A stretch of DNA of 63,057 nucleotides, the filler included, from Sluysia triapertura (Eukaryota): NCBI GenBank assembly GCA_046118255.1. It is 4 parts of 4 records of this genome, joined end to end, with 100 filler letters (N's around TTAATTAATTAA, not from the genome) between each part and the next. Parts side by side here need not be neighbours in the genome. Positions count along the whole stretch, not along the records: positions 17,991 to 35,246 come from JBJNIA010190274.1; positions 35,347 to 51,829 come from JBJNIA010203041.1; positions 51,930 to 63,057 come from JBJNIA010188476.1; 1 more part is not named here. One strand, written 5' to 3'. The translations under genes were made by a program, and so were the position numbers. Below the pieces are notes generated by a model. That model worked only from the letters and a program-made list of their open reading frames with translations. It did no database searches and was not told where the DNA came from. Below, in pieces: positions 17,991-60,637 of this stretch (positions within the stretch are counted from its first letter, which is position 1; each line of letters starts with the position of its first letter).

Positions 17991-19128
17991 CCTTTTTCTT
18001 AAATATTTCATAATCTTCCAGTAATTTGACATTCTCTGGTAACTGGTTGTATATTTTTGAAACATAAGCGGTATACAACCTATTACCTAACTTGTATAGA
18101 TTATCAAGCCTCAATGAAATATTCATCTTGGTTTCCAAATTTTTTATTATTTCTAAAAGGTATTCAGTATTTTACAAATAATGTATGTGGTGGCCAACTT
18201 TCACAACCATTGAAAGTTTATTAAAAACGATTATCTTTTTTTATTACACTCTAACATTCATATATTTATCTCTTTCATACCTATAAAACACCTTACCTAC
18301 TAAAATCAGTTCATACCCACAATTCCACAATTCCCCCAACATTACCAACTTACACCAACTAATCCACCAAAAACACGTTATTCGACATTCATAATAATCA
18401 ATTACAACATTTTAAATTGACCATTTGTCTCTGCATAATCACCAACAACACAATACAATACCTTTTAAAAATAGCAAACAAATCACATAAAATGCCACAT
18501 AATAATATTTTAAATACACCAAGAGTTGTATTGTAGTTGTCTTTTTACGTTTACTAAATTATAATCTTCTCAATAAGTCCTTTATCCACGATCTTCCAAT
18601 GCTTAAATGTCGTTTTCAAGTATGAACTTTAATCACCATCTAAGAACTCATTATAACATTCTCTATTTCATTTCACGACATAAATCAACTACCATATCTT
18701 GAAACACTAACTGCACATACCAATTCAGTCAAAGCAAGTTCTACTCAGAAACTTTTGTTTTAAACACATTTAAATTTATTACAATATATCAAGAAACCTC
18801 TAAGAATCAAAGGAAGATCGTGTACAGTTTTAAAGAATTCAAGTTTATGCAATGCAGTATCAACAATAACTTGAACATTGCGCATCTTGTCATCGTTGTT
18901 ATTGCATTCAAATTTATCATTTTTCTATTCCATTTCAATTAATTTTATATTAAGAAGGAAGTAAGATAAGAAAGGAAGTTATTGTAGATTATATAAAGAA
19001 TTTATGTATTTTGTATTAATAATAACAGCAACATTATTGTTATTATTAACATTAAATTTTATAATTTTACTTAGTTATAAAAATTATATCTTTTTATTGT
19101 TATTAAAATTTATAAATGACAGTATCTA

Positions 19129-19189
19129 CCATCATCAGTATTGACAATACTCATTATTGTAAATACATTTATGTCAATACTGATGATGG
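19129..19189. other. Perfect 18-bp stem hairpin in cassette A
   Basis: CCATCATCAGTATTGACA-25 nt-TGTCAATACTGATGATGG. Confidence 0.9.
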
Positions 19190-19375
19190 CTCTTCGCTCA
19201 TTCATCTGTATTTTTATGCTACACAAAATTTTGTCTTACCGGATTTCTAATGGCCGGTAATTTCAACGGACAAATTATAAATAAAGCATACAATAATCAC
19301 AACCTAATACTTACAAAAATAGAATACCCTTAAAATTACAAAAAAAGAAAAGAGTATGATAATGACAAATTTCAA

Positions 19376-20158
19376 ATGTCCAAGTCAACGCCAAGAAATT
19401 TCGTAATACCTAAACCAATAGTTAGTCCTAAAATTCCAGATCATTGTTATAAATCTCCAGATCATTGTTATAAATCTCTAGATCATTGTTATAAAACTCT
19501 AGATCATCGTTAGGAAGGCATATATAAATTTGATAAAGATTATCTTATTTCTAATTCAGTGTTGGTACGAAACTGTTGGTAATTAGCAGATGCCTATCCG
19601 GAACCATTTGATCATCAGTACCACGATTTAGGTCTCATCAGATCACTTCGACAAACAGTTTGCAGACAAAACTTAAGAAACCTGAAATGCAATTTATGAA
19701 ACAACTTCATTTCTGGACAATTTGTAATGCCATCATTAATAAAGTCTAATTTACATAAATACGTGATGTATTGTAGAATTCTACGACATAAAGATGAATC
19801 TTTTAAAGAAAAAACTCGATCTTGGAACCATTCTTGTCATATGTATAGATCGGCTACTCAAAGAAATAAAAATTATTACCAAATCGATAAATTAATATTA
19901 CCACTAAAACACTATGTATTACAAGAGACGGCAAACATCATGATCACATATCATTCTGGAAAACAAAAAGTTGATAAACCTACTAGTACGACAATGATCC
20001 ATTCCTTGGCGAAGTATATCAACATAATCATTTTATTTGTTTATCGTTACAATTTTTTAACTGTTGTTTTTATTTTAGAGATTAAACTAAAGACTGGGAT
20101 CAACGAAGTGTATAGAGATATGATCAAAGAAAGCAAAACTTTGTGTAATAATAATTAA
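19376..20158 (+). pseudogene. Cassette A cargo ORF, unknown protein, disrupted 5' part
   Basis: MSKSTPRNFVIPKPIVSPKIPDHCYKSPDHCYKSLDHCYK (21-bp repeat x4, ~19436-19510), followed by stops and then ORF 19727-20158. Candidate GT-AG intron 20014-20078; AATAAA near 20157. Confidence 0.5.
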
Positions 20159-20807
20159 TAAATTAAAATTTTTTAAATTCTTTATTTTTCTTTATCATAA
20201 AATCATACTAGGTAAAAGCGATAATGTCAGAAAGAATGTTGTTGACATAATTTTAATCAAATATAGTTTCTATAAAACTCATAATAATCACTGTAGTGTT
20301 TGTTCTATAATTAACCAATTTCTTTATCAACCAAAATGTAAGGATTTGTAAATTATTGTCATGATTCTGATTTCTATTCTTGCTTTTATTGGCAACCAAT
20401 GCAATTCCTTAAGATAAGATGTTACATGAAATCTTCTTCCAACTACTTAGAATAATAATAATATGTAAATAATATAACTGTCATGATGTAAATACTAAAA
20501 TATGATTAATATTTAAATAATTTCAATTTAAAAAATTGTTTAATTAGGAAATTAAAAGTACAAATCTAATTAATTTAATCTAACTAATTATTTTTGTTAT
20601 CAAATTTTGTCGGTATTAATAATTAATATATATTTTATCATATTTTATTATTACAATTGCCGGTAAACTTCAAAGTTTACGGAACAAGTAAAATAGATAA
20701 ATTAATATAAATAAGAGCACGATTTCTGCTAGAACCCAGTTGAAAAAATTATAATTCTAAGAAGACACGTTCATAAAAGTATAAATCTCGAAATCTTATT
20801 GGAATAG

Positions 20808-25422: not shown

Positions 25423-28400
25423 ATGTCTTCGTGGAAAGATAAAACTGATTCTTTTGGAGATTCTGTAATCAGTCTTCGTAAAGAAAATTTACCACGAAAT
25501 ACTAGTAGTCGAATATCGTTTGTTTCTCAAAAATCTTTCAATTTTAATGAAAATGAATCTCCTGATGTGGTGTATGGGATAAATAAAGAGGATATTGAAC
25601 AGGCTTCACAAAATTCATCAACCGCATACTTAAAAAGAATGACTAGTAGTCAGGAATCTAGTTGCTTATGCTGGAGAAAATTTATTGATGGCTTACGAAG
25701 TAAAATCATCGATTAATTCTGTATATATTATGACTTTTAATTAGGAGCTTGGGCTACGAGAAACACTGAAGATATTGGCCACAATTTGGAATTATTTGCA
25801 AAAACAACTTTTAGAGAAATGTTTACTTATACTATATTTATAACTTTATTAATGATAAGTTAGTTACGTGTCTTAATTTATTTCATATTTTATAAACATT
25901 TTCAACTTTCGAAATCAATTTATGAAAATTTATTCCATTTATATTTTTATAATTTATAATCATTGATAAACAATATCAAATTATTATAATTATAATAATA
26001 ATAATTATTATCATTGTAATAAAGACTCAAATCTTTATATTCAAAACAAATCAAACACTTAATTTACTAAGCACATTTAAAAACAAAATTCAATACTCGA
26101 ATACACTGTATAATAAAAGGGACCAAAGATAATAAATTTTATTTAGTTTAGATATTATACTCACTTAATTGCTATTCAACGAAAAAAGGAATTCATACAC
26201 TCAACTAGTATTTTCAAATATTGCGAAAAACTTAGGAATTCAAAAATTATGAACCGAAATTATTAATCCGAAATTGCGTTTCAAATATCCATTTAAGCTG
26301 ATAATATATATTATAACAAATAATATGAATTTAATAATTTTCGCCTATAATAACTTCTATAGTTAATTTCTTGATTATTTTTAATATATTATCATAATAA
26401 TACGATCAATTTTTTATTTTCATTTTAACAAAATTCAAATATCATTTAATCCATGGTATTCTCTATTTGTTAATGAACTGTAATGAGTTTCATTATATTC
26501 TATTTTTGTTTTCTTAAATTAAATGTATATTTTGAAACATTCTTTTCTTAATCTTTTGTTTACATTTTTGATAAATTATTCATTTTCTTATGAAGCCAAG
26601 TTTCATTTGTTTAGTTTCTTAAGAAATAAAATTATTTCGTTGGGGCCTGTTATAACCATTGAACACTGACAACTCAGATCGAAGATCATTGTATACCTAC
26701 GACTGAATTTCAGGCTGTTCATTTTTTGGATACCGTAGATATTATCAATGTTTTAAGTTGCTATATATAAATTGAAAATACATTTTTCAAAATTCTAAAT
26801 ATCAATAATTTGGATAAAATGTGAAGTAATCTGCTTCCAATAATACGTCCTATAATTTCGTAAATTAATTCTTATAATAAAATCAATTATATATATTTTG
26901 CATCGTTTACTTTAATTTCAGTTGCTTTCGGAATGAGTACAGCAAACATTTATTACTTTACTATAAGTCTGCAAGACGTATATATGCCAAACGAATTCAC
27001 CGAAATCAAAGACGTAGAAAGCTTGTGGGCGGTAATATTTTGAAAATAAAGATAAAATAATTATAATTTCTAAATTTAAATAATTCATACATTATTTTCA
27101 AATATTATTAACATTTATATATATATAAATCAATTTATAATATTTAGTATATAGATTATTATAGACTATGATTATTTTAGTTTATTTAAATCAATAAAAC
27201 AAATATAAAAATATAAGAATTAATATAATAAATCAATAAAAATTAATTTCAATTACAGTTTTTAACCGAAAAATTACTTAATGGCTGGTATTGGGATAAT
27301 TGGTATAATCAACGACCTAATATTACAAGACAATTTATATATTTCGAAAATCAGTTAATTAGCGTACCACAAATTCGGCAACTTCGCGTCAAAAATGGAA
27401 CATGTCAAATTCCAAATCATTTTAAAAATTTAATTCCTTATTGTTATGGTGATTTTAAGCAGAAAAGTATTGATAAAGCTCCTTTCGGTGATGGTATTGG
27501 TAGTGCGTAAGTTTTTTATTAAAATATTAAATCGTAAATATTTGTTTCTCTTAGTGTTACAGAAATATTTTTATATTAATGTTTTTGAACACAAATGTCG
27601 AATAAAATTTGTACATATTACTGTGGTTTTTACTGATACTTTAAGCTAAACCTACGGCAAAATAGAAAATTGATCAGGGTCCGGTTACAGTAAGCATCTT
27701 ACGTTGTAAAGAGGGCATTTCTGTAACAATATTAGTTAAGTAAAACGTAACAACCTAAACTGATAGTTTAAATATAAGGGGGGTCAAAAATTGTTATAGT
27801 ATGAAACTCAAGTTATTGTGCAATAAATAAAACTTCAAAACGTTCAATTAAAATTTTGTTACAATAATCATAATTATAAAATAAAGATATAAAGAAAGAG
27901 AAATTGAGGTTAAGAATTTTGTTCGGTATTTAACTATTTTAATTATATTTTGTACTCTATTTTGCTCCTCATTATATCTGGGAAACCTTAAACTTTACTG
28001 AATAGAATATTATTTTATGTATATTTTAAGATATTAATTTTTTTAAATAAAGTTAATATCGATCTTAAAATAAACAAATTACTTTGGTCACGGAACTAAT
28101 AAATTTGAATCCAAATTTGACTGCGATTTTGGTTGTTGACGATATACAAAAACGATGTTAAAAATTACGTTATTTTGGCGATTTTCATTGTATTGATCCT
28201 AGTTTATATACTAGTCATCATCCAATAAAAATCGTTAGAATGTTCTAGAATATTCTAGAACATTCCAGAAGTTTCTATACTATTTTCAGAAACCAATTTT
28301 CTTTTTTGCAAAATAATTTCTTTTTTAAGTAATTTTAAGGATTAATAAATGATATTAAAACATTTTCTATGATTTTAATTTTTTGATAATTTTAAATAAT

Positions 28401-28997
28401 TATGTGATCTTAAAATTATTTTGTTGGGTTGCGATGACAACCCTAACAATATGAAAGTATTTAGTTTCAAATCGCGTATTGAATTATTTGTGTACAATGT
28501 ATTTATGAATGCTGAGAGTATCCATCGGAAATTTCTAAGAAAATATTCAATAAGTTGGAAATATTAGAAAAACCGGAAGACTATCATCAACCAAAAAACA
28601 AATCGTAAAATATCAGTAAAGCAATCAGTATTTTGATTTATGATTTGCATTATATCATAAACATATTCAAGATATAAAGTATAAGCTTATTTATTTGTTA
28701 CTTGTCAATCAACCTTTTCCTTAGTATTTTCATTCATCATTTTCCAATAATTAGCATCCGCTTTTAAAATTTTGTCATATTTTCTTAATTTTAGTTATTT
28801 AACATCCTTACAAAATTGTCTAAAATTTGCGATTTATGAACAACCGTCTACATCATCTAATTTATTAATCACAACTATCATTTCTCGAGTGATGTTCTGT
28901 AAAAACAATCATATTTTCAGTTTCGACAAATGATTCTATTATATTATATTCATGTCTTTCTTTTATACTTCAAAGTATCATCACTAGTAACACAATA

Positions 28998-29051
<54 letters not shown>

Positions 29052-32000
29052 TTCTTTAATTTATTACTGCATTTTCTTTACACATTACTAAAAGATCTAG
29101 GATACTAAATGCATAAGATTTGATACGTCATGTGATAAATGTAGTAATTGTAATATGTTGGAGAGTTATGATCTAGACATGACTGAGTAGCAGTTACTGA
29201 ATCGAGTTGGATTTTACGACGATTCGAAGAAAACAAATGTTTAAACGGTTATATTTGTAAGGTTGTTTACATAGTTAGATACAAAAATGTATTTACAAAT
29301 TTATGTTTGCATTTCTACCCAAAGCAGGTGTCCATTAGAGAAAAATGTTAACGATTCAAACAGCGTATGACTATGAACAGAGAAGAACTTACAACTGTCA
29401 TTGATTTTACAATTTGAGACGCTTTGATTGTAGTCATTGTGTTGCTAAAGTGAATCATTGTCTTGACATAATTGTGAAATCGATGTTGATGACCACAAAA
29501 TTTATTTATATGAATATAAAGCTTTAATGTGTAATTGACATTACAAACCATCATGCAATGTAGTTTGTGAAGTTGGTCCCTTTATCGGTCTGTCATATTG
29601 CACAAGCGGTATTTGGTAAAATTATTTGATATTATTGTTTAACACAGTATGATAATAATAATGATAATTATCATTATAATAATAATAATTTTAATAGTAG
29701 AACAATAATAGTTTTAAATTAGAATATTTGAAACAAAAGATATTAATTTTGAAGTGTTAATAATGATGACGACGATGAAGTTAATTGTAGTAATAATAAC
29801 AATATGTAAAAAATATAATAATAAATATAATAGCTGAATGATAATGATAAAAATAAATAGAATAATGATAATGCCAAAGATAGAAATGAAAACATTATTA
29901 ACGACACTAATGTATTTTAAACATCTATCTAATAAAAAATCTTTGATTTTCAGAAATTGAATTACTGATTTTAGTTTAATAATAATAGTAATATAATAAT
30001 AATAAGAATGATAATACTGAATTAAAAAATTACTTAGGGTACTTTAAAATAAAACTAATTTAAATGTAAATATTTATAAAATCGATAGAAATGCATGAAA
30101 TAAAACTAAAACTAATATATTAAAATATTATTGTAAAAGAAAATACTAATATTAATTTAGAAATACTAAGCATTAAAAATTCTATTTAAAAAATACAATT
30201 ATATTGTACAAAACATTAAGTATTAAAATCTATCGTAAAAGTTTTATTATTCTGTCATTATTTTATTATTAAACAATTTCTGTAAAACCAACGATGATAT
30301 AATTTTATTGCATTGTAAAAATTATTATTTGTAAATTAAATAATTGTATTATAGACTAACAACAACTTTATTGTATTATAATAATTATTATAATAATAAT
30401 AAAATCGCATGAGAAAAAGTACAAATAGACAGTGCAATTAATAAGGAATATAATTAATCTCGAAACATGAATTCTGAAGAAGCGAACAATTAGTTTTAAT
30501 TTTTGTAAATTTTAAATTTTATTTTGTTTTAATTGCAAAATCAATTAAAATCTCTTATGTTTATAGTTTTCAAGAGACTAGAATTTAATTCTAGCAGATA
30601 AAATTCTATTTTTTGATTCCATATAAAGGAATCCTACGAAAAATATATAATTAAATTGATTTATTTAATTTTGCGATTCCAATTAAAATCTTTTAAAGAA
30701 TATTCACCTCCAGATAAAAAGGTACTCCAGAGACTTACTTGTCTTTAAATTTATCTTATAAAAATCCAACGGCTGGCCCCAGCAGGTAAGTCCAGTACGT
30801 TGGTGGGCTCACAGTTTTGACTTATTTTATTCTGTTAGCTTCACACACATATCTCACAGAAGGATAAGTTTATCTCTTTCGGTGAAAACCCAACAAAGCT
30901 CAGATTTTTCAACTAAATATTTTAATTTCGCGAAAGGATCATAGATACGTCACAAAAACTCTGCAAAATTATTGTGAAATTGATAAAAGCTTATAAAATT
31001 TGAGAACAAAGCTCGAGTAATAAATAAAGTCATTTTTAAATGAATAAATATAACAGGTTGAGAATTACGAATATTCCTATATTGACTGTTAAACATTGTT
31101 GTTCATGGATAGTTAAGGTTAATTAAAGGACTTATGGCCAAATAATGAATAAAATTTTATGTTAAAATGATGGAATAGATGTGGTATTTACATCCCAATA
31201 ATTATTATAATTAATGACACTATATGTTATTTTATAATTTTTTAATGTTTATTTTTACTGTTATTATTCTTACAGTTTTATTACTATTATTGTAATTAAT
31301 AATATAATTATTAATATTGACAAATAATTAATTAATAATTACGAGGATAAAATAATTAACGTGCTATACCAACTAAATATACTAAATTATTATTGTTTGT
31401 TCATATATTTTCGTGTCATTTTAATTATTTATAATCGAATTTTGATTTTTAAACAGATCTTAATGAATAAAGTATTTTATTTAATGAATAAATTTGTTAT
31501 AATAAACTGAAACATTGAATAATTTTAAATGCAAAAGTTGGCATTTCCATTTTTGCTATAAGGAACTGTTTACGAACTAACCTTGACGACGTAGACATTA
31601 ATTATAAACTAATTTAATTGCCGAGATAAAGTCACTCATTTATAATAGTGTTAGTTATAAAGCGAACTGTAAACTTATCACTGATTGCGAGTTAGAAGAA
31701 AAGTAATACATACAATTATATTATTATATCTATTATTCAAATTTAGCTGGATTTATACAGATAATAATGATTCGTCGTCGTATGATGGTGTGTTTGGGTC
31801 ATACACTGCCGGTGGTAATGTACAAACATTAACTAGGAGTAAAGATACATCCAGTGCAATATTGAATGATTTGAAAAGCAAACTATGGATTCGGAAAGGA
31901 ACTCGAGTTATATTTGTAGATTTTACTGTTTACAATGTCAATATAAATATGTTTTCTGTTATTAAGTAAGTGTTTCATCGACATGTAGTTAATTCAATAT

Positions 32001-34987
32001 CGATTGTTTAGTACATGTATTTCATAAACGCAATCAAAATTATAACTGCTTTAACTTGGAACGAAAATAATAATAATGTTAGACTTCATTAAATGAAGTC
32101 TGACCTGGATTCGAACCAGGGCCCTCTTACCTCACAGCTGTGAAGTTCGATGCTCGAACCATTAAGCTATCATCCCGTCTAACAATTTTAGATTATTGTA
32201 GTCAATTATACTATCCTTATTTTAAATGGCAATAATAATAATAATGAATAATGATTATAATAGTAATAATAATAATAATAGTAATAATATTTATCAATAA
32301 TAATTATTTTATAAATCATTATTTTGACCTTGTTGCTCAAATAGATCATTTTACTTGGCATGTACATGTATGGCTACTAAATCAGTGTTTTCAATTTCAT
32401 AAACAATAACAAATAAACAAAAATTTTATATTAATTAATTAGTAATATTTTATAAGAAATATAAATTGCATTATTTGTGTGTTTTATTTTAGACTTGTTT
32501 TTGAATTACCACCAACTGGTGGCGTCTTTAAATTTTCTGAAATTAAAACTGTCAAATTATTTCGCTATGTCAGTCCATTCGATTATTTCGTTATGGCTTG
32601 TGAAATTATTTATCTTTTATTTATTGTCTATTATATAATCGAAGAAATTATTGAGGTTATTTTTTAATTTTTTACTATAAACAAATTTTATCAAACAACC
32701 ATTTTATTATGGCACTTCTATTTATGTTATTGAAGTATTTTAAAACTTTAAAATTATTTTATTAGTTTCGATACTACTAATATTAAATTAGTAACGAAAG
32801 ACTATGACAATAATTTGAGAAAAACGATTGAAAACTTTAATAAAATAATTTAATGTAACTGGAACTTAGAACGACAATACATATAAATGCTTTTGGAAAG
32901 CAAGTTAACACAAAAAAATAAAATAGTAGGATGTGGGAAATACGAAATATTAATAGGATAGAAATGAAAAACAAATGCAAAATTCACGTAAATAAATAAA
33001 TTATATGATCAGAATTAAAATATATATAATATATAATTGATTTATTTAAACAAAAAATTAAGAATTATCTTAATAATATATATGTTCTGCAATTAGGGTC
33101 TTTAACAAATGATCAAAAAATTTTAATAACTTATCGTATGTCTTTTAATAATTAAATAGGCACCAAAATATTAACTTTATTTACGAAATATAAAAAATTT
33201 TATAGTAATAACAAAAACAGAGATCAGTAATAAAAGTTTTTTTAAGGATTAAAGTTCGAAGAGCGTTTAATCTAATAACTATAATAAATGGAGTACATAT
33301 TATCGGGTACTTAATAATTATAAATAATTAAAAATTTAAGTTGATTTTATAATGTTGAAATTGAACTTAAAAATATATAAATTACCAATAAATGGAATGA
33401 TTTTGAATAGTTGTTGTTCTGTGGATATTTCCCAAATATTTCTAAAGTTATACCAAATATTACTAAAATTCCAACAATGACGCTGCAAAATTGTACTAAA
33501 GGAGAATTCCAAATTGCGACTAATTTAAAATTTCAAAATGGAGATGCTAGTTTATATACTAGCCAATAGGAATCGAAAGAACATTCTAGAAGCTTCTATT
33601 CTATTTTTAGAGGCTAATTTTCTTTTTTTGAAAAATGATTTCTTTTTTTGGAAATAAATATTTTAAAGTAATTTTAAAGGTTTTAAAAGATTTTTAAAAC
33701 ATTTTAGATAATTTAAAATAATAGATACATTCAAAACAAATCTTGAATATGTAAATATTAATATTTACTTTATAATACCTAAATATCTACGAATATTTAT
33801 GTTATAATTGAAAAAATTGATAAAAACGTAAAACAAATAATCTTAATAAATCTTACAGTTATTCGGTCATATAATTTATTTTCATTCGTCTTATATTAGT
33901 TTGCATTTAGTGTTTTTATATTATTTCTGTTTTATTATCATTCTACAGAATTCCTATTTGATCCGCAACAATTTCCATCTATATTTCCCACATTATGCAC
34001 TTTTCTTTTCCTATGTTAACTTGGTTTTCAAAGGAATGTTTTATTGTTTACTAGAATATTTGGGAAACATTAAAGACCTTAAAGTTCAAGTCTTAAAGTT
34101 TAAGAATGCTTTAACTTGCTCCAATCCCCGTTAATTATATATCAAAATGTGGAACACATAATATTAAATAATTTTGTAAAATAAAAATCATTCAAAATTA
34201 AAACTAATAAATCTAATTTTCAAGTTTAAGTGTTAATTTAAATTTAGCACAACAGAAAAATTCCCTTTATTATTTATTAAATTTAAAAAGTGCAATTATC
34301 AGAACTTTGATAAGTTTTTCATTAGTGTCCTCGTTTTTATCCATGAGTAATTATACATACAGAAAGACTTTATGATGAACTTCAAACTTTCGAAAGAATT
34401 TTTTTGTAATAAAAGAATAAACATAATAAAATGCTAATTAAAAAAATTATTTCTTAGCGCAGATACAACTTTCATTTTATCGTGGTTTGAGTTGAATATA
34501 TCCTAACAAATAGATTGCCATTATAGCCTTTGACACAATTATGGCAAAAGTTTATTATCATGGCGACCCTAATACATGGAATTATGTATTTTAATATCTA
34601 CATAAAAATATTACAAATACCTTATAAAATCAAATAAAATTTTTGCACACTTTTAGGAAAATTTAAAAAAATCAATAAGATAAAATTATTGTGCGTAAAT
34701 TAAAGTACATTTTCATTTCATTTCTCATTTTTATTTTATATATTGTTTAGATTAAGAAACACCGATGGTCATATTTTAAAGAATTCTGGAATATATTGGA
34801 TTTATTTGTTATTTTAATAAGTATAATTTGTGCGATATTCAACATTTATCGAGTTATATATATCGATAATACTTTTCGTACTGTTTTAGAAAATACTGAA
34901 GTTTTCGTAGATTTTTATTTCATTAGTTATTGGCAACGAATTTTCAATGAAGCTATTTCTATTACTGTTTTTCTTGTAATGGTCAAG
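25423..34987 (+). CDS. PKD2: Polycystin-2 (PKD2/PKD2L, TRPP channel), 5' part; truncated by contig end
   Basis: Phase-compatible exons 25423-25699, 25745-25858, 26922-27031, 27259-27506, 31747-31965, 32493-32655, 34751-34987. Motifs AWATR...KTTFREMFTY, FIYFENQLISVPQIRQLRVKNGTC, LWIRKGTRVIFVDFTVYNVNINMF, LVFELPPTGG, FVMACEI and FWNILD match polycystin-2. Confidence 0.93.
28998..29051. repeat. (ATT)n microsatellite
   Basis: Perfect run. Confidence 0.95.
29340..29640 (-). mobile_element. Decayed retroviral-type integrase core (Gypsy/Ginger-like) in PKD2 intron
   Basis: QTDKGTNFT, RFHNYVKTMI and SVHSHTLF in shifting frames resemble SDNGT(N/Q)F / ERFH.TLK.ML / SVHS.TGF. Confidence 0.5.
32077..32195 (-). 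mobile_element. tRNA-derived SINE-like element
   Basis: A box TAGCTTAATGG and B box GGTTCGAATCC; flanks shared with the 41176-41284 copy; AAT tail. Confidence 0.7.
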
Positions 34988-35095
34988 GTTAGGCATTTTA
35001 TTTGCTATTATATTTTATGAAGTTGGGCGAAAATTAAATGTATGATTAATCATTATTTGCTTTATTTACTAATCTAAAACATTTAATTAATCCCT

Positions 35096-42821: not shown

Positions 42822-42901
<80 letters not shown>

Positions 42902-43563: not shown

Positions 43564-43784
43564 ATGATTTCTAAAACATTAACGTTAAAATTCATCTTAT
43601 AAAAGCATATTGGAGTTCGTTAGACATCTATTATGAATTCTTACGTAAATAATTTGTCTGTTAAAAATATTGGACCTAATGATCGACTTATAGTTCTCCA
43701 AATTTGGAACACAACAGGCCTAAATGATTGCATTCTAACTTACGTTATTTGAAGTGAAGATACATTTTACAATTTGGCACATTC
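43564..43784 (+). pseudogene. Rab7-like small GTPase 5' fragment (degenerate) inside cassette B
   Basis: MISKTLTLKFIL*KHIGVR*TSIMNSYVNN..LSVKNIGPNDRLIVLQIWNTTG aligns in register with Rab7 [31 protein letters not shown]...[22 protein letters not shown]. The switch-I segment is deleted and there are three in-frame stops. Confidence 0.75.
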
Positions 43785-43813
43785 GTACGTTAATTTTCTA
43801 ATTTTTTAGTTAG

Positions 43814-44648: not shown

Positions 44649-45289
44649 GCACATCCGGGATTAAAATAATTAACGTTCAATGTAATTTTAATAAATTTTT
44701 ATGTAGTTATAGTTCATTTATAAATTATTTTATATTCCGAAAAGCACAATACAATAAAGAATTAAGAAACAAGAATTTATATAAGATTTCAATTTACTTT
44801 TTTAAACTCAATCTAAAATCATATAAAAGTGTCTTAACACATTTATTTTTGGATAATTTTTTAAATAGTACATAGATATATCTGCCGGTGGAGGGCTGGT
44901 ATAGCTCTAACATATCGTTTTCTAATGGTTTAGCGCAAATACAAGTTTAAAATCAGATTGGTTAAATGTTGTGCATTGAGATTTAGTATAGGTTTTCGTT
45001 AGAGTGAGAGTAAATTAAATGTGGATATCTTGTTTTTACTTTATTTTCTTTGTAGACGGAACTTAGGCTTTATTTATTTTAAGCAATCAAAATATTTTAT
45101 TTGTTAGTTAATCAGAAAAAAATAGTTGTTTGTCACCGCAGATAACCGTAACTTAATCTGCGACCAATCATACTTAGGCAATTTTTACATGAATGTGATA
45201 TATAATATTATCAGTTACATGCATAAGGATTACATCTATGAAGATTCTGTGGTTATCGCGCATTACATACAATAATATTTAGTAAAAAT

Positions 45290-46456: not shown

Positions 46457-49047
46457 TTATAAATTAGATTTTAAAATCTGTTCCTTATCCGGTGAACAAT
46501 TGGTCGGTAAAAAAACTGTTTCTTCTAAACTCTGATTTTGATTGGTTAATTCTTTGGCATTGTCTGCCCAATCCTTTGCAGTTTTATTTAGCTTTACACT
46601 TCCACTTGAACGTGTGGAATTTTGTATTGATTCTTTTTTATGTTGTCGTTTCTTGGTTGAAGATTGAGAGAAACTGTTCTGAGAGTCGATTGAGGTCGAG
46701 GTATATCTGAATAGTATATAGGAACCCTTACCATGGTTATAATTTTTATTATTTTATTGTTATTATTATATCATTACTATTATCATTTTATTTTATTGTT
46801 ATTATCATGTTTATTATTATTATTATTACTATTATTATTATTATTCGTCAATTTCGCTTTAGAACAAAAGAATATTTTTAAAAATATTTGGAATTTGGAA
46901 TTTTCTTTTATTGTTAACATTGTATGCAATAAAAATAATTTTTGTTCAAAAATTATCTACTGAAAAATATAAACAGAAAATAGTCAACCTCTTAAATGAC
47001 ATCCGCTTAGCCAGTATTTTTGATACCACCTCCTCCTGTGGTCCGACGTTCTCATCTTCTTGTTCTTCAATGTCTTTACCCTCGTCATCGGAATTCAGTG
47101 ATTGATGTAGTGGAAAGTTCACTATGCAACGAAATATATCTTTGTCCTTGGACAGCTTCTCATTTTTGAACAGCCAGTATGTTAAATACGACACGAATAG
47201 AATGACTAGGAGTGACATGACCATGCAGAACGTCTTCAGAGGGAAGAGTGAGTCACCTTCTTTCTATAGGAAATATAAACTAGATGTATATATACACTGC
47301 GACTAACCGTAAATAATGGCAGTATGGGTGGTAAAGATAACGAGCTTTCGCCTATCATCAGTCGCAATACGAAGCCCACCAGATAGCCCGAGAGAGATCC
47401 ATATGTATTACTCCATTCCACGTGCACCACGCATATTAATTGTGGAAATATAATGACGTAGACCATGTCGGAACACAAGAACCACAATGAGTAAATCGAT
47501 TCTATTTGAATTGCCAAGTAGCAAGCGAGAGCGCCAACCAGGAACACGCTAATCCTCATGGTCCAGATTATCTGCAATCATACAATGAAATAATGGCTCA
47601 TTATTATTGTCGATGGTTCAAATAGGACAGACAGATCATGTTTCATTGTAAAATAAACTTTACTTAAAATCTTACTGAATTTTAATAATTGTTAAAATCC
47701 AATTAAATCTATCTTAATTCTTTCATTACAATTCTAAAATAAATAAAATCAAAAGCTACAACTTTAATTATATTCAATATAAAGTAATTGCAATAATAGG
47801 GAAATAAAAACAAATAATTCCAATCAATTTTTCCAAATTATCTATTCTTACTATTATAAATCTAATATTCAAAACTACATTCACCTAACCGTAATTCAAA
47901 TAAAATAAGAAAAATAAACAAAATAATAATGAAAATAAAATGAAAACCAGGACTGATGTAACACAAAATCTAAATAAAAATTCCGTAATTTGAATTTATT
48001 ATAATTTAAATAATTTATTTATAACATTAAAAAAATAATAATAATGATTATTAAGATGAACCGTTCAACCAGTTGCGCGTTAGTGAACGTCATTCGTCAG
48101 TGTCCCTGATTGGAGACCTTTTACCTGCACTACTCCAATATGATTTTAGTAATTTATCCACCACCTCCAAAATTTCATTTGGGATCATTCATCCCTGTTT
48201 TTGTGCTACACACTGATACGACTTGAAATAGGAATCAACTGACTACAACTAAATTCTAAAGTGCATATGCAACGGATATGAGAATATTTGCAACCGTTTT
48301 CTAAGATCAAAGCAAGACTAAAACACTAAAATAACAAATTAGTCCTGCTCTTTAATTGTGAATTGTTCATAGATCTAAGTTCCTCGAGATTCAAATGTAA
48401 AGTCTTGCCAATTTGGAAGATATTCCAAAAGAAGGCTTGAAGATAGCAGATTATATAGCAAGATAGAGACAAACTTGAGGTTGCGGTATGAAAGGTATCC
48501 TAACTTTGATGTTACATTATTTAAAGTCGAGATTCTGACATTCCTTATGAAATAGAAGATAAATATGCTGATTCCTTCAAATGAAACAAAAGAACCAATC
48601 ACAGATGATTTATTACAAGTTGTCGATGAATTGATGTTATCGTCGCATTTCTTAATTCCTAGAACATACTGTTGCACAAAGTAAGCCCTTCTTCCGAATA
48701 TCTCGAATAATTCATCTTTATCAGGATATGAAATGAACAGCACAGAAATTATTTTAAATTTTAACTTTTGAAATAAAGATATATTTGTAACAATTAAATT
48801 TGCGTTACCATGTTATCAGATGCTTTCTGCCAAACAATGGATTTGAAGACATTTCTGGCGAACATAGAAGCAGCTGATAAAATTGAAGAATCGGCAGATG
48901 ACATTACCGCAGCCGACACAGCCCCAAGGCCGATGACACCCACAAATTCTGGACAGAGATATCGAAGAACTAGAGGTAGTATTTTGCGGCGCTCACTGTC
49001 CGGTATGGTGCCGTTTACAAGACCCGAGTAATTTGTGAAACTCCAAT
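46457..49047 (-). CDS. SLC5A7: High-affinity choline transporter SLC5A7/CHT1-like, 3' exons
   Basis: Exons 49047-48809, 47571-47308, 47263-46989, 46706-46457, in phase and ending in TAA. ILPLVLRYLCP...GLGAVSAAVMSSADSSILSAASMFARNV, LWFLCSDMVYVIIFPQL, SNTYGS and FPLKTFCM match CHT1. Confidence 0.92.
48050..48740 (+). mobile_element. Possible decayed hAT transposase in SLC5A7 intron
   Basis: Coding-like composition with many stops; weak hAT-like motifs (R*SERHSS..., YPNFDVTLFKVEI). Confidence 0.35.
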
Positions 49048-49519
49048 CTGAAATTAAAAAATCGAATGTCTAAAATTCAGCATGCTATAGGTGTATTTTG
49101 ATGGAACATATAATGCTGAAGAATTTTAAAGGACAATTATTGTAGAAGTACAACTATTGTAGAAGCACATAGAATGCAACATACATAATAATATTTATGA
49201 AATAAGCATACTATTTCATGATATTCCAGAAACTCGACATCATCTAGTAACTAGTTTATATATTTTTGAAATATAAAAGGTATTTGCACTGTCGGGGTGT
49301 CAGTGTAAGGTTTAAACTTTAAACGAATTAATAATAATAATAATAATAGACCTACCAGAAAATTATGTCCGATAACACAATATCAAATTTCAACATATAT
49401 GTGAATATTAATTTGAGAGATGCATGACTGCATGTATATATACGAGACCCTGTAAGCAAATATGACTTATGTTAGTTGTGTAAACATGAGTACTGATAAA
49501 GTTCATTTATGACACTCTA

Positions 49520-51829: not shown

Positions 51830-51929
51830 NNNNNNNNNNNNNNNNNNNNNNNNNNNNNNNNNNNNNNNNNNNNTTAATTAATTAANNNNNNNNNNNNNNN
51901 NNNNNNNNNNNNNNNNNNNNNNNNNNNNN
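51830..51929. other. Artificial contig linker
   Basis: N44-TTAATTAATTAA-N44. Confidence 0.97.
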
Positions 51930-52699: not shown

Positions 52700-54850
52700 A
52701 TGTAATTTTATAACTGAGAGAAAAACTAAGGTCATGTATCATATTTCTGGTCTTATAAAAGGTAATGCCGATTTAACAGCAGATTTAAAAAATTTATAAT
52801 GAATCGTTCTCAAATATATCAACAATTTATAGATGGATAATTGCATTTAAAAGAGATAGATCAAATGTACATGACAAAAGATTTGGTAGATATTCAATTA
52901 TAAATGAAAATTTATCAATAACGTCAAAAGAAAATCATTGCAAACAAAAAAATCATGGTATCCTAAAAATATCTTGATAAAGGAAGTTATATTCAAGTTT
53001 GTGCCACGTTTTTTAACTGCAGATACGTTAAAATATGAAAAAGAATCATGGAATGTAGAATAACAAAATATGACAGAAAATAATATTCATATTTATTTAT
53101 ACCAAAACTAGAATGTCATTAAAATGTAAACATGCAAATGCTTGTTAAGATGAAGCAAAGGAATTTCAATGAAATAAAAAATTTAAATAAATCTTCAATT
53201 AAGCCTCACAGAAATAAATATAATCGCAAATACATAGCAAACATCTAGCGATGGCAAATTGAGATTGTATTGTACCATATGTGTATATATTATTTTGATT
53301 ATAAACTTTCTTAACTGTTATTTTCTGTATAAGCCACTGAATCATATAAAACGAGATGGCTTCCAAACAGAATATATCTTCCAATTTACGTTCTTCAACC
53401 ATGAAACAATTATCGTAATCTCTTTTGATATTTCCAAAGACAATGTGACAAGGATTTAAAGTAAAGTAATTTAAAAAAATTATTGTCCATAGTTGTTCTT
53501 TAAATGAATTAAATCTTTTTCGCATGTATCAGAAATTTAATCAACAAATGTGACATTGGTATTCTCGCATTTTGGTTCCATTTATAAATATACCACACCA
53601 ACTGTATAAGATCAGAAATCTTTAAATAAACGTCATTTATTTCGATTATTTAAACAAATTCCTTTTATTCTGACACATCAATAAAAACGCTGAACGGCTT
53701 AATAATTTTAAGGTAAATTTTTAGATAATAAAAAATACTCCCTCTGTCCGGAAATATGGTATGCATTTCAAAAAAATCATAGATTATGGAGGATATCGAA
53801 AAAATATTCATTATATTAGTATTGTATGCATTGAACGTCACATAACCTAACATAATTGGCAGGTGTTGCGTTCGTGTAAAGTAAGAACTTGACGATCAAA
53901 GATAAGATTTTTAAGATAAATAAAATAGGTACCGCTGTGATTTGCAAATGGAAATATCCGAAGAAAAATTGATAAACTTAAAAAGAGATGCCAAATATAA
54001 ACAATTGACCGAACAATAACGTCATGGCATCCTAGAAAAATTATTACAGCACATGAAAGAGAACAAGTTACAACACGGTTACAAGTAAATCTTACCAATA
54101 ACGGAGATGTTCTTTTTGATGATTTATATGACTACATTCATATTGACGAAAATTATCTTAGTAAAATTAAACGCTCTTATTACCTAATGTTAGACGAAAA
54201 AGAACCTCAGAGAAACTTTTATAAGATCAAATTTCTTTAACATGAAGCTTCCCCCAACACAATTAATGAATTGATTGATTGTGTTCCAAATTCATTTAAT
54301 AAATTAGAAAGAAATAATATTGATGTTTTTACCACATTATGGAATCAATTATGTTAATGGGTGGAAGAAATTCTTACAAAATTCCCATATAAATAAGACA
54401 AAATTTCGTCTCGAGAGTCGATTAGCTGAAAATACGGTCAAATCCTATTTGAATTAAATTTGTATTTAATTATATTGTTTAAATATGTATATAATATAAT
54501 TTGTATGTTAAATTTTAGTTTTATTTTATTTTTTTCGCAAATGTACATCATATTTTCGTACGACAAAAATTGCCAAATGTAAACCACATTTCCGGGCAGA
54601 GGGAGTAATTGAATCAAGAAATCTCGTAATATTTTACAGAATTAATACATACTTATCATTAAATCGATTGAGAATTTCAACAATTGTCAGGTTTGATGGA
54701 ATCAAATCTAATTCAACATTTTCATAACGTAAACGTTCAGAAATGAGTATTTTTAAAATAAAACTTGTTATTCTATGAGAAATTCGATTGGAGACGTCAA
54801 TTTTTATCGGCAAAGTAGCATTGTTCATGTGGAATTGTCTTTTCCAGCTA
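52700..54850 (-). pseudogene. Possible pseudogene of a receptor with periplasmic-binding-protein-like ectodomain, interrupted by a mariner
   Basis: PIKIDVSNRISHRITSFILKILISERLRYENVEL resembles the S..I...ILKILL.E.LGY.V motif of type-II binding-protein domains. Fragmentary coding-like frames continue downstream. Confidence 0.3.
53738..54605 (+). mobile_element. DD39D (plant-type/Stowaway-related) mariner, internally deleted
   Basis: TA TSD; 23-bp TIR CTCCCTCTG(T/C)CCGGAAAT(A/G)TGGT; remnants FDDLYDYIHIDE...YYLMLDEKEPQR and PNTINELIDCV..SF...GGRNSYKIP. Confidence 0.85.
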
Positions 54851-57749
54851 TAAACTGAAATAATTCATAAATTCAATTGATTTAAATAACTTTAAAGGAA
54901 AAAATTTTTTCATAAAATTAAATTTATAATTAGATTTGTTATAATTATAATTAGATTGAAGATAATAAAAGTCCTTAATAAATATAATATAAACATAATA
55001 TTATATTATGCATGATGTAAATCATATCACGTGAATTACGTAAATAAAACCATTAAGTTATAAAATTTTTATGTAACAAATTAAAACCATTTTATAAATA
55101 AATAACTGCAAATTACTCAACTTTTAATAAAATATAGTTATTGATTGCGGTATTTGTAATTTATTTTGCATTACATTTTTCGTGAATTGACCATTTCAGA
55201 GATTTGAAAATGTAAATAACATATTAACACATTGAGAGATGACGTTAATTCACGTTATTTGGAATTTTAATTTATATAATTTCAACAAAATATATAATTT
55301 CAAGCTCTGTGCCTCAATATGTTAATAGTGCATTACAAATTTTCAATTAAATTTTAAATTTTCATTTTTTGAAGTATCATATTTACATTGAATTTTCAAA
55401 TTTTACTATGCATTGTTTTAAAAATAATTTACTGCTAGATAGAATTGCTATTTATTCCAGTAATACTTACTAAAGTGGATAAATCATACTTTCAACCTTG
55501 ACGTTTACATGAACTTGGTAACTTTTAAAATATAAAAATAGTTGAGATACAGTTTGGATTATATATACAAGTATATAGACCATCAATAATGATAACTTTT
55601 ATTAATGGGTTTAATGTGAACCTGGAAAAAGCAAATGTGAGCTTAACAACTTGATAAAAATGTTAATTTCGTTAAGTTACACTTGATTTAATAAAATTAA
55701 TAAGTCGATTGAAGGTAGTATTCTAAAAAAAGAAATTATGAAAGTATTGATACAAAAAATAAGCTGAAACATTTTAAATTAACAATTTATTTTGTGCTAA
55801 CCATATTAATCAATGTAACTTATTATTTTTTACAAAACACTCCATAAATTGCAATTTATCAATTTTAATTTCTCTCACGTTATGCCTTCTAGGTTGTTAA
55901 GTTGTCATGATATACGAAAACGAAGTAGTCCAAATGGAATTACTGAATATAATTAGTCATTTTGTGTTACTGCTACTGTTATGAAACTTGAGAGCTTTTA
56001 TTTCCTTCTACAGCTATTTTTCCTTTACTCACTGAGACATTGTTATATGCATCATTGGTAAGTTTCTTAATCATTCTAACATTCTTAAAACTATTCAATC
56101 TTTCTGAATAAATTTGAAACACTTCTTCATAATTTCTTCTATAACTTAATATCTTTTGTTATTTCGGTGGAATATAGATAGTTTTATATTGATTTTATTG
56201 AATAAAAATATCAATTGAATTATGATGTTTACTATAACGAAATATTTTACAAAAAAATTTGCATTTTGTCTAGTTTTTGTTGCTTCGATTACTTTCTATG
56301 ATTTTCGCAGTTAAATCTTTAACAAACTATAAGCAAAAATTAAAAATAACACAATCTAAGCCATAAAAAATAATAAAGTACATTCGATCATTAATTTACA
56401 AAACTATAAATTTAAGCTGCAATTTTATTCACATTACAGATCATTGATAATTAGAGAGACATCGAAAAATTAACATAAAGTTCAACGAAATGATCAAATG
56501 TTATTGTGGTGGCCAACTTCTAACTTAAAATTCAAAATAATCATTCTAATTACATTATTACATTCATTAACATTTTACATTTTTACCTTTTCAAAATTTA
56601 TCAAAACCTTTTCTAGATTTTACATTTTTTAGATCCATTAAAACTATTCTCATTTCAAAACACTTTAAATTCACAATCTTTTAACATCAAAACTATAATT
56701 ACAGTCAAACCATTAATGTACATTTCAAATTTCATTAAAACATTTTTAACTCACAATTTCACAACATTAGAATCACACTTTACATCTCAAAGTACCAAAC
56801 ATAAATTTCAAAGTTAATTCAAAACATTTCAAATTCAAAATCTTTCAACATTTACAACATTTATTTCTTAAAAAACTTTAAAATTTCATTTTAATATCAA
56901 CTTTAAAACATCGCATTTAAAATGAAAATTCTTTAACTTCCTGAACTATATTCATTCATCAATTCCTCTAACATCTTTAACTACATTGATACCTTTTATT
57001 AATTCAATAATATTACAGAAAATGTGTTCAAGAATTTTTGTTTTATTTTATTTATTTTATTATTATTAATTTTATCTTATTATCACTATTAATTCTTATT
57101 ATAATTATTATTACTATTTTACTTCATTATTTATTTTATATAATCATTATTATTATGTTTATCACTATTAAACGTTGTTACTAGCCATTGTAACCTGTCA
57201 TAAGTTGACAGATTTTAATTTAATTTCATGACGATAATTTTATAACTGTCAACTGATGACAGCTGCCTGGTTTGTTTACATTTTTATCAAAATGCATGTC
57301 GATTGGTAATGTTTAGCCAACAAATAAGAGTTGTGTACAATTGATTCGCACACTGTCTCTGTTGATGCTGCATTGTTTATAGTATTTGATTTGGCACCCA
57401 ATCACTGATTTATAATCCAATTTTGATTTATAAGTTGGTTTATTACAAGCAAAAAAACTAGAGTAAACGAGCACTATTCATAATTAAAATTAAAGAGATA
57501 AAAATTCAGCTTTTTAAAAATTTAATGCTTACTTTACTAAATCAATGAAAAATTATTATAATTCAGTTATAGATAATGATAATAATAATTTAAAAGTAAC
57601 TGAAATTCAAAACCGATGGTTTTATCATTTTCAAGTAAAAATCGTATTCAGATTGTAATACGTACTTAGTAATTGATATTGATTATAACACTGTTACGTA
57701 TTCTCATTATTAAACATAAAATGTTATCAATGTTCAGAATATCAATGAA

Positions 57750-58336
57750 GAATTTTACATATCAAGAAAATAATACCCTTTGATGTTAATACTTGCGGAT
57801 TAATAGACAAGCAAGATACACGAAAGTTAGTAAAGTTTATTCATTGTAAACCTCAATTAATAAAGATCTTCGATAATATTCCTTTAGTATTTGCATTATC
57901 TGCTGCACACCATTGTTTTGAAGAACAAAAAAGAATATTCTATACGACATTATATGAAAAATGTTATCCAAAGTACACCAAATATTTAAATTATTCATTG
58001 GCTCTCAATGCACATCCGTTTGTTATAAACGATTACACGAAATCAGCTCAACCATCTGTATTTCCTTTTCCTTTGTCAGATAGATCAACTATGCATTGGA
58101 TTTTTGATTCTTTAAATTGGTGTTACCTTTTTTACATTGATGAAATAAATGAATCTTTGATCGAATTTCGAGTTGTTTACGAAGACATGATTAAGCTATT
58201 TGAACAAATCAAATTATTCTATTTTAAAGAAATGAATAAGCAAAAAACAATAAAGTTTTCGTTAACTATTACCAAACTACAATTTAGCAAATCAATAGAC
58301 AACTATATCATGTTCAAGACTTTCCTTATTATTTAA
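57750..58336 (+). pseudogene. Cassette C cargo ORF1, unknown
   Basis: Stop-free frame of ~195 codons (RILHIKKIIPFDVNTCG...FKTFLII*). Confidence 0.5.
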
Positions 58337-58564
58337 CTTTAAAGATACGTCTATTTTCTTTCAATGATCACAATATTGATATAAAAGTAAATCTTAGTGG
58401 GATTAAATTCATATTTAATAATGGCGTTATGATGAAAAGTTCCCATGAGGATATTCAACAGAATAGTTAAAATGATAATAAGTTTTACTATGTTTTTATT
58501 GAAAATAAAAGATTAAGTATTAAAAATCAAGTCCTGCTGTTTAAATTACAGTATTTATACAATT

Positions 58565-59150
58565 ATGGTAAAAAATGAAATTGAAAGAAGCTCCTGAATC
58601 AGAAAATGCTAATGCTCATCTACTAAAGGAGTTGGAGATCCCACACTGTCTCTTACATCATCTATGATGACTCAAAGAGGTTTTCAAAAAGTTACACAGT
58701 GGCTAAATATTGTTTATGATCCTAAGACAAATGTTCAAAGTCGATCTATTCCCATGCCAATTTTCAAAGCGATTTCCACCAATCAGTTACTTGCAGCACA
58801 ATGCCCCTACGGAGTGGATTCCTCCAATATTTGTATAAAGTATGGATTATGCTGTCCACATTATCACAACGTATTCGAAATCAACACTAATCAAGAACAA
58901 GCGATCGAACATAAAACAAGATTATACGATTTATTAGGATCAACAAAATATGGAAATTACCAATACCACCGACAGTTCAACAATAATCAACTAAAAGGCT
59001 ACTACCAAAGTAATGATATTATTTACAAAGTAATTTACATTTGCTTAACTATGTATAAATTATTGTTTATATAATAATTAGTTTATTTCGCAGGAATCTA
59101 CGACCAGAATAGTTGAAACGGCATCCGACTGCAGACACAGCAAAGTGTAA
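58565..59150 (+). pseudogene. Cassette C cargo ORF2, similar to cassette B cargo
   Basis: ORF from 58664; intron 59030-59093 (GTAATT...CGCAG) gives last exon ESTTRIVETASDCRHSKV*; two stops lie between the ATG at 58565 and 58664. Confidence 0.55.
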
Positions 59151-60637
59151 AATAGGAACTTTAAAAACATTTTTAGTAAAACTTAAAATTGATGTTTTTA
59201 AAAATAAAATTACGTTTTATTTTGTTTCTTTTTGTAAAATTTCAAATGCAAAAATGAAAAGTTAAATATAAAACTTATGAAATATTTTACAAGTATTGTA
59301 ATAGACTTGTAACTTTATATGTTTAAATTCCAAACAATAATTAATAACTAGATTACCTAAGCATATAACCCTAAAGATATATAAACTGCACTTGTACTAC
59401 GAAAAATAGAAAAACAATTCAAGCAAAACTAAAATATTTCAAACATTTACAAAGCATTTAAATGAAACAAAATTTATAATTTATAAAAATTATAATCTAA
59501 CCATCATTACTTTTACTCATTTTTTTGTCCAATTTAATACAATGTTTAAAAGAATAAATGTAAGTAGTAAAATAAAATAACATAAGTATTATTATACACA
59601 TATGATTCATCATGTTCCAGGTGAAGATAAAGAGATAATGCAAATTCCAAGTAAAATGCAATTTTGCAAATTATCCATATTTAACCAAACAAATTAGAAA
59701 TAATAAAACTATTCTGAACTGAGTAATTCATAAATATTAACATTATGTAATGTAACATAAAATTTGGCTTGAAAACATGCAAATGTTTAGATTGATTTCC
59801 GCTCTTCAAATATAATTGTTTTGGTAAATTTAAACAAAAAAGTAATAAATATAATTTGTAACAAATGTTTGACAAATATTTTATGTACTTATGAAAAATC
59901 AAGGATTAATAAATATAATATTAAGGTTTTTTTTTGCGCGATATTTTCAATATGCTTTGTCAACAAATATTTCAATATGTTTTTAAATTTTGTAAATAAA
60001 GGCATTATTTTATTTAAAAGATAAATGTGTGTAAATTAAGGAAATAGATTATGTAAGCTGTTACAATGATTTTGATCTTACTTCTAATTCTAACTGAATC
60101 ACATGTGTTTCTTTGGGACTGCGGAAATATCTTTGTTTAAGTACTTCTGAATTCTGTTTTAGAAATAAATTAACCCTATTAAATTAAACATATTGATTAA
60201 TTAACAAAACTTTGCATTTAATTCTTTAATTCGTTTATAACGATTATATGTTTTAGCTATTATAAAATGTGCAATTTTATTGCAAACAATCAAATATTAC
60301 ACAAGCTCATTCTGTGAATTACATTAAACATTGTATATTATAATTAAATTTAATTTAATCAATTTAACGAAAATATTTTGTAACTGTATTATAAACTATT
60401 TATCACAACTTCTTTCTTCATAGTGTGTTTAAATAATTTAACATTTAATGCTTTATATGTAACTTTAATTTTACTTTTGATGGGTTTTCATTTCATATTT
60501 ATTTAAATAACATTTCGACATAATTTCATTAATTTTATCTTATAACTTCAATGTATTTTATTTAGTAATACAAATTTTGCCATGGCAATTTAGTTCATGC
60601 TACAAAATAAATATTTTTTTCGATACATTTAAAATAC

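Follow-up and report, generated by a model that had tools for sequence, protein, structure and literature searches.

The window analyzed here, a stretch of 63,057 nucleotides from Sluysia triapertura (GCA_046118255.1) with 25% G+C (~13% each of G and C), joins four contigs by artificial linkers and holds a family of repeat units that share a left end and a G-poor leader and carry genes behind them, among these a decayed Ski/Sno homolog (Table 1). Copies A, B and C lie on three separate contigs with N-linkers between them, and each begins with the same 13-bp left end, TGTGGTGGCCAAC, exact at 18186, 42084 and 56505. Scanning with up to two mismatches returned four matches against 0.15 expected, a number reached in 0 of 100 shuffles, and thereby upholds the identical terminus that an earlier reading of the DNA (hereafter the sequence-only reading) had reported in three contigs. 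That reading had recognized three copies only; two further, variant left ends, D at 62937 and E at 62341, bring the total to five in three contigs.

The leaders contain 3.6-6.5% G and 18-23% C against ~13% of each window-wide, as had been claimed; the window has four long, strongly G-poor stretches, each of them the leader of one copy (A, B, C or E), and two short ones elsewhere. Leader homology falls in collinear blocks (A/B, z 8.7-17.7; B/C, z 8.3-11.6; A/C, z 4.2), within which the shared blocks quoted earlier are indeed present. E is placed in the family by terminus, composition and depth only. Metagenome scans with the B/C leader block gave no match, and those with the terminus plus a G-free run gave seven, none with a strongly G-poor leader and the match being at most 28 nt and AT-rich; the viral contigs searched yielded one chance match and no protein relatives.

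Between leader and open reading frames (ORFs) predicted stems are dense: 1,460 nt of such sequence hold 7, while the 52,700 nt taken as background hold 35. A 17-18 bp hairpin is common to A, B and C with folding z of -3.5 to -7.7 on either strand, in agreement with the hairpins described before, and the accompanying AAT/ATT tract is perfect in B, imperfect in C and unreported by Tandem Repeats Finder in A. In the best A/B stem 4 of 17 pairs have changed on both sides, a count that 35 of 500 shuffles reach, which lends modest support to a conserved, if only predicted, pairing. Size and stability of the predicted stems fit microRNA-precursor hairpins of ~60 nt, the kind that gives discrete RNAs of 22 nt; Rfam gave no match for the stems. 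Choosing a strand from hairpin wobble pairs was dropped, the unbiased count being G-T 3 versus A-C 4.

Table 1. Features of the repeat family and of its surroundings, in coordinates of the whole window
Feature	Position	Strand	Remarks
Copy A	18186-20335	+	Right end uncertain; alternative ACA end 20247
A terminus (13-bp) and G-poor leader	18186-18800	+	G 6.5%, C 22.8%; homologous to B 42500-42762
A AT-rich 12-bp stem	19016-19049	.	Positional counterpart of B 43040-43085
A perfect 18-bp stem, 25-nt loop	19129-19189	.	Homologous to B 43149-43210
A ORF	19700-20158	+	No known family; predicted GT-AG intron 20014-20078 (65 nt); AATAAA 20157
B left target-duplication copy CATTT	42079-42083	+	5-bp
Copy B	42084-44839	+	TGT...ACA; sole copy with both ends well supported
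B terminus and G-poor leader	42084-42750	+	G 5.7%, C 20.2%
B (AAT)26 tract and four stems	42823-43301	.	Stems 42861-42950, 43040-43085, 43149-43210, 43250-43301
B frameshifted ORF	43794-44566	+	43794-44432 then 44411-44566; 3' part homologous to C ORF2
B predicted intron, 55-nt GT-AG	44567-44621	+	AATAAA 44753, 87 nt before end
B right target-duplication copy CATTT	44840-44844	+	5-bp
Copy C	56505-59291	+	Right end not established; depth at flank level by bin starting 59350
C terminus and G-poor leader	56505-57030	+	G 3.6%; summed depth 350-470x single-copy
C imperfect ATT tract and 17-bp stem	57043-57262	.	Stem 57195-57262
C decayed Ski/Sno gene	57545-58336	+	Dachshund homology domain, then Smad4-binding SAND-like domain; open from 57749; ~55-60x single-copy depth
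C ORF2, CCCH-finger-like motif	58613-59150	+	Predicted 64-nt intron 59030-59093, short last exon; AATAAA 59203
Copy E	62341-62623	+	Degenerate left end (4 mismatches), 280-nt G-poor leader, ~500x single-copy depth in bin
Membrane-protein-like ORF, low-copy, between E and D	62630-62941	+	Stop codon inside D terminus
Copy D	62937-63057	+	Variant left end (2 mismatches), G-poor leader, truncated by window edge
Artificial linkers (44 N + 12-base stop cassette + 44 N)	17891-17990, 35247-35346, 51830-51929		Order and orientation across linkers meaningless
Host gene, BRCT and polyglutamine (polyQ) protein	1638-13022	-	
Host gene, polycystin channel	27247-35017	+	
Host gene, high-affinity choline transporter	46949-49069	-	
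Host gene, germ cell-less	60724-61373	+	

Copy number of the family

Abundance was gauged from one public run that contains this DNA (88% of sampled words), is stored as contigs and may be the assembly's own source; no RNA run was listed as containing it. Depth was computed on the fourth contig only, which carries C, D and E, with a single-copy reference of 16.5 (unique contigs 12.5-18.8) and an 80% likeness cut-off; the tool itself cautions against taking contig depth, once summed, for a copy number. Relative to the reference, C has a left-flank bin at 3, leader bins at 468 and 351, a stem bin at 214, bins of the Ski-like gene at 60 and 56 and ORF2 bins at 28-33; its end stands at 13 and the flank behind it at 4, and the bins with E and D reach 512 and 531 against 2 immediately upstream. 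Overall, leader depth is 350-530x single-copy with adjacent flanks at 2-4x, the non-coding leader of C is ~8-15x more abundant than its ORFs, and the distinct contigs number 87 and 100 over two leader sites and 16-41 over the Ski-like gene among the sites listed. The repeat family is thus real, large, old and subdivided, and the Ski-like cargo is a trait of a subfamily and not a one-off. Among the 15 of 137 joints listed, none skips C or its predicted intron, an outcome that is uninformative either way.

Beside these copies, an intronless ORF of 103 codons (62630-62941) sits between the leader of E and D; we presume that it resembles the start of SLC43-type transporters, with no support from Pfam, NCBIfam or PDB. 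Because only one contig covers it at two sites, at a depth of ~50 (3x single-copy) and with a sequence that differs from the window, it may be a low-copy second cargo. E and D were also considered as a pair of long terminal repeats (LTRs), and this was rejected, as the two do not align.

Cargo genes

The cargo of copy C includes a Ski-like gene. With its frame read through and X placed at stops, the Pfam domain Ski_Sno_DHD (PF02437) scores 36.5 bits against a cut-off of 24.5 (E 4e-9), c-SKI_SMAD_bind (PF08782) follows downstream in the correct domain order at E 0.001-0.013, under its cut-off, and the PDB matches are Ski at E 2e-4 and SnoN at E 6e-4 (1sbx, 3eq5, 1mr1). Judged by this domain homology, 57545-58336 is a Ski/Sno gene. 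Its 5' part holds five in-frame stops, most Cys/His of the human SAND-like motif are lost, and the ORF ends after ~260 codons, before any coiled coil; a word-based search with this ORF gave no match of comparable length. In another contig of the run the SAND-like stretch has 58 differing letters in ~300 without a gap, and the stretch that follows has 12 gap letters (one record each); the ungapped divergence hints that the frame may have been maintained between subfamilies. With homology and multi-copy state both observed, we lean toward the view that one subfamily captured a Ski/Sno gene of the host in its 5' part and was then amplified.

The remaining ORFs are less readily named. The 3' part of the B ORF aligns to C ORF2 with a score of 73, reached by 0 of 2000 shuffles, and a predicted intron at a similar place ends both; this common ORF looks like part of the chassis itself, so that the sequence-only summary, a conserved chassis with differing cargo, has to be corrected for what B and C share. 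The A ORF has no significant homology to C ORF2 (p 0.053), and an all-against-all comparison of 108 frame pairs found no further shared ORF beyond multiple-testing expectation. A CCCH-type finger in C ORF2 (Pfam E 0.011, below cut-off; Atlas scores <0.9) is a lead only. The A ORF and the 5' part of the B ORF have no known relatives, the B ORF being without a match in Pfam, NCBIfam, PHROGs, PDB and Atlas; its sole match among 1.84 billion proteins, a repetitive bacterial surface protein, was rejected as chance, a ubiquitin-like fold for its 5' part was a guess by eye and is unsupported, and single-sequence structure models of the cargo were unusable (pLDDT, the predicted local distance difference test, 32 and 35). 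Upstream in A, at 19431-19512, lies a 21-nt tandem repeat of four copies with 93% matches, whose ORF piece reads as repeated 7-residue units, each with a single Cys and a single His.

GT-AG introns of 55-65 bp had been proposed for all three copies. The segments are there (65, 55 and 64 nt in A, B and C), and their splicing is a prediction: the unspliced frame is also open in A and B, and the splice in A gives a stop two codons on. Leader, a TATA-like word in A (18990), ORFs, short intron and AATAAA do amount to a gene-like layout, of the kind expected if the copies were a non-mobile multigene family of the host, whose promoter is conserved and whose coding parts evolve fast. We regard this as very improbable, given that stops and frameshifts break the ORFs, that the leader so outnumbers the C ORFs, and that a sharp left boundary, a D terminus cutting an ORF and the target duplication of B are all in evidence.

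Ends and nature of the units

Only copy B is cleanly bounded on the right, by TGT...ACA and an exact 5-bp CATTT duplication (chance 0.01-0.03 in 350 nt). In A chance alone would give an ATGTA duplication 0.82 times in 350 nt, a figure that drops to 0.02-0.06 if the end has to fit AMA/YYAMA with AAA accepted; the duplication is compatible with 4, 5 or 6 bp, and the alternative ACA end at 20247 stands 91 nt after AATAAA without a duplication. The left-flank 5-mer of C has no copy in 58900-60500, and the ACA of C has no duplication either. Of the 5-bp duplications given earlier, with that of C called imperfect, the one in B is exact, the one in A could be chance and C has none. AATAAA precedes the end by 87 nt in B, 89 nt in C and 179 nt in A (91 with the alternative end), a word common by chance in DNA of 75% AT. 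Taken whole, the sequence-only observation stands for the family, its left ends, leaders and hairpins; its right ends are weaker than presented, and two left ends, the shared cargo and the identity of the Ski/Sno gene had been missed.

Absences that it listed are borne out. Terminal inverted repeats exceed 3 bp in none of the four end pairs (14-15 matches among the first 40 positions; local p 0.11-0.76), and no TGG primer site is seen beside the ends; reverse transcriptase and integrase families are likewise missing from 19 + 88 window ORFs, one scan of which excluded low-complexity ORFs and those <58 aa, and from 21 read-through cargo frames. There is no strong direct repeat between ends (best score 17-20 over 300 x 300 nt), and the terminus does not recur at right ends; on these grounds, and with D and E not aligning, a terminal-repeat retrotransposon in miniature (TRIM) or large retrotransposon derivative (LARD) layout was excluded. 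A dispersed family of the integrase type with TG...CA ends is supported by the high depth, by left boundaries that are sharp, by the one clean duplication of 5 bp and by the lack of inverted or paired terminal repeats.

Such ends would also suit whole non-autonomous DNA cassettes, moved by a transposase, integrase-like or DDE, that tolerates dissimilar ends in the manner of Pack-type shuttles, with no RNA step and hence with surviving introns. TGT...ACA with its duplication in B, predicted introns retained in three of three copies, variable cargo behind a conserved end, a parent retroelement that is not seen and the many DNA-transposon remnants in the window would all be accommodated. Among described elements, Ginger1 and Ginger2-TDD have TGTNR ends, 4-5 bp duplications (mostly 4-bp), introns and lengths of 2.6-7 kb, but also inverted repeats of 40-270 bp and an integrase-like transposase (PMC2836005; here and below, published systems are described from excerpts of the articles cited). 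With inverted repeats of at most 3 bp and no integrase-like transposase found by Pfam in its copies, the family is excluded from Ginger as defined; and as AATAAA at a fixed distance from the B and C ends is an LTR trait, we consider DNA cassettes of any such kind unlikely.

The depth profile of C, falling from ~470 to 13, raises a different prospect, namely non-LTR or Penelope-like retroelements that are truncated and have the minus strand as sense, in which the conserved left end would be the 3' end, the right ends ragged, the cargo transduced or antisense and the duplication of B either chance or of variable length. A leader of just 280 nt in E, poorly conserved right ends and the missing duplication of C agree with this, and Penelope-like elements are known to keep introns. 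Gene transduction by them has been described as well (PMC6431247). Against these points, the conserved end has no poly(A) or tandem tail in the copies inspected, no hammerhead core occurs in any copy (simple pattern) and Rfam gives no match over B, C, D and E; the TG start fits an integrase motif at 7/7 positions, the ACA of B lies exactly at the duplication, and subfamily-specific cargo would also yield a depth gradient at the 80% likeness cut-off. We rate this origin as decidedly unlikely.

On balance, and by no wide measure of confidence, we read the units as solo LTRs of an unusually large gypsy-like LTR retrotransposon with a gene cassette inside the LTR, the copies in the window being, on the same footing, old and decayed. 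Very large solo LTRs, already suggested from sequence inspection, thus remain the best reading, with one of three right ends well supported and no paired copy seen. Within it, a plus-strand sense is tentatively favored, because the left end fits the CsRN1-type 5' integrase motif TGTGGYG (PMC3601003, Table 3) at 7/7 positions and AATAAA stands ~90 nt before the B and C right ends, the place of the repeat (R) and unique 5' (U5) regions. The motif, one of eight tried, is matched on the plus strand 7/7 in A-C and 6/7 in D, with a chance, given TG, of 0.0004-0.002; the 3' motif MSYYAMA is matched 6/7 in A and 5/7 in B and C, and AAA ends are possible in CsRn1-type LTRs (PMC2582038). Conserved cytosines in the unique 3' (U3) regions of class III and gamma retroviruses (PMC3601003) also fit the C-rich, G-poor leader. 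A minus-strand sense with antisense cargo, which the sequence-only reading preferred, is not established and appears the less likely of the two within the solo-LTR reading: it has in its favor that the ends, when reversed, also suit motifs of low information (Sushi/rGmr1 7/7 in B), that LTRs are mostly conserved at the 3' end (PMC3601003), and that an antisense gene would give a simple account of intron retention.

Several observations weigh against solo LTRs. Just one of the three right ends, that of B, is well supported, and little sequence is common to all three, which is odd for an integrase end; neither a TGG primer site nor a purine tract is visible beside any end (A, B, C and the E/D flanks were inspected), and neither paired copies nor gag-pol were seen within the four-contig window. 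The steady fall in depth across C would fit truncation from the right equally, the predicted sense-strand intron is kept in three of three copies where a plus-sense RNA intermediate could lose it, and the B/C ORF comparison was picked after the likeness had been seen by eye, plain BLASTP giving only E 0.014. In the CsRN1 clade, moreover, LTRs are a few hundred bases long against the 2-3 kb of this family, and the duplication is 4 bp where B, the one informative copy, needs 5 bp to end in ACA (PMC2582038). The terminus as a tRNA primer site was a separate candidate and was rejected: D breaks its TGG, and the likeness extends over 8 nt only. Left end, leader, stems and Ski-derived cargo are the firm parts of this description, and right ends, LTR identity and strand are tentative.

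If the solo-LTR reading holds, an autonomous parent elsewhere would reverse-transcribe and integrate via TGTGGTG and ...ACA ends with a 5-bp duplication, and LTR-LTR recombination, an established mechanism, would then leave a solo LTR of 2-3 kb. On the plus strand this would comprise the G-poor leader as promoter region, the stem cluster, the gene or genes and AATAAA ~90 nt from the end, such that the cassette would lie within a long U3 and use the LTR's own poly(A) signal, with the CCCH-finger-like gene and its 3' intron as a putative standing part of at least two subfamilies. More speculatively, and with considerable doubt, the LTR may be a self-contained expression module with promoter, microRNA-like hairpins, a standing CCCH gene and an exchangeable slot for host regulators, through which one subfamily spread a truncated Ski/Sno in frame to damp TGF-beta/BMP signaling where the element jumps, each solo LTR being a ready-made gene.

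Relation to known systems

Ski is a brake on TGF-beta signaling, and LTR elements that capture genes usually carry them between their LTRs. The v-ski gene of the avian Sloan-Kettering viruses sits in the internal region of the virus, and in mouse mammary tumor virus (MMTV) the sag gene is a complete accessory gene inside U3, a single fixed, intronless viral gene with no exchangeable host cargo. Like the C cargo, v-ski is a retroelement-borne truncated Ski with Dachshund homology and SAND-like domains, both of which fall in the first 304 residues, the part needed for transformation and repression (PMC5992185); it belongs to a laboratory-derived bird virus, whereas the copy described here is germ-line, multi-copy, decayed, invertebrate and apparently inside an LTR.

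The solo LTRs of CsRN1-type Ty3/gypsy elements (Metaviridae) appear to share TG...CA, a TGTGGYG left end, a permitted AAA end, AATAAA near the 3' end and a short duplication, but measure 146-383 bp among the rows listed against 2.1-2.8 kb here, where genes, a predicted intron and stems lie inside (PMC3601003, PMC2582038); CsRN1 membership fails on duplication length. The clade is further marked by a tRNA-Trp primer site and a CHCC signature in Gag. Foamy virus LTRs come close in architecture, with a long U3 overlapping an accessory ORF, a microRNA hairpin cluster and a splice donor upstream of the poly(A) signal, yet these are vertebrate retroviruses whose microRNAs are proven by sequencing while the present stems are only predicted (PMC7104284, PMC3694450), and their ORF, no captured gene of the host, has its start beyond the LTR (PMC7104284). 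Burro giant gypsy elements of planarians are likewise invertebrate and gypsy-like, with thousands of copies and host regulatory domains (BIR, BCL2-like, MATH), a likeness by description only, and carry the captured domains in internal ORFs and not in the LTR (PMC6431247); the extra ORFs of rotifer LTR elements are internal too (PMC5408684). The family is a member of none of these systems, be it foamy virus or MMTV LTRs, v-ski, Burro or the rotifer elements, and a title-level literature search, with most subscription journals outside it, found no transposon-borne Ski and no captured genes inside invertebrate LTRs.

Were the units LTRs, their cargo would survive the very recombination that normally disarms an element, and many solo LTRs would amount to dispersed copies of a host-derived signaling repressor, each supplied with a promoter and a poly(A) signal. 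If true, a Ski borne by a transposon would mean that a capture familiar from a bird tumor virus has happened again in the germ line of an invertebrate, and would add TGF-beta/Smad control to the host pathways, such as apoptosis and ubiquitin, with which giant retrotransposons like Burro appear to meddle. Should the units be DNA cassettes without inverted ends instead, the mobilizing enzyme would itself be of interest.

Host genes and other elements in the window

Three of the host genes in the window, which encode the polycystin channel, the choline transporter and germ cell-less and have short introns, show the source to be an animal; the BRCT/polyQ protein at 1638-13022 (minus strand) is presumably PAXIP1-like. 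The host proteins are 42-65% identical to the database matches listed, flatworm, molluscs, tick and wasps among them, and no close relative of the host occurs among these matches. Best identities of 57-65% suggest an animal lineage that is poorly sampled.

Remnants of other mobile elements are scattered over the window. An element at 53738-54597, which we take to be Tc1/mariner-like, has decayed ORF pieces, terminal inverted repeats that begin with TACTCCCTCTG and a depth of 1,400-1,900 in its core bins. Inside the BRCT/polyQ gene, a DDE_Tnp_1-like zinc finger at 14746-15060 (E 1e-8) overlaps a segment, 14771-15310, with an inverted repeat pair at 14771/15298, and this remnant is presumably piggyBac-like. 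A Spin-doc zinc finger at 4001-4228 (E 7e-7), one 13-mer of which recurs at 53355, is probably a hAT-type transposon remnant. Two GC-rich hairpins outside the family, at 9147-9205 and 35101-35172, fold with z of -7.4 and -7.6 and have no Rfam match at gathering score. Finally, low-scoring tRNA matches at 32096-32176 (minus strand, 31.8 bits) and 41196-41267 (plus strand, 34.5 bits) are possibly pseudogenes or heads of short interspersed nuclear elements (SINEs).

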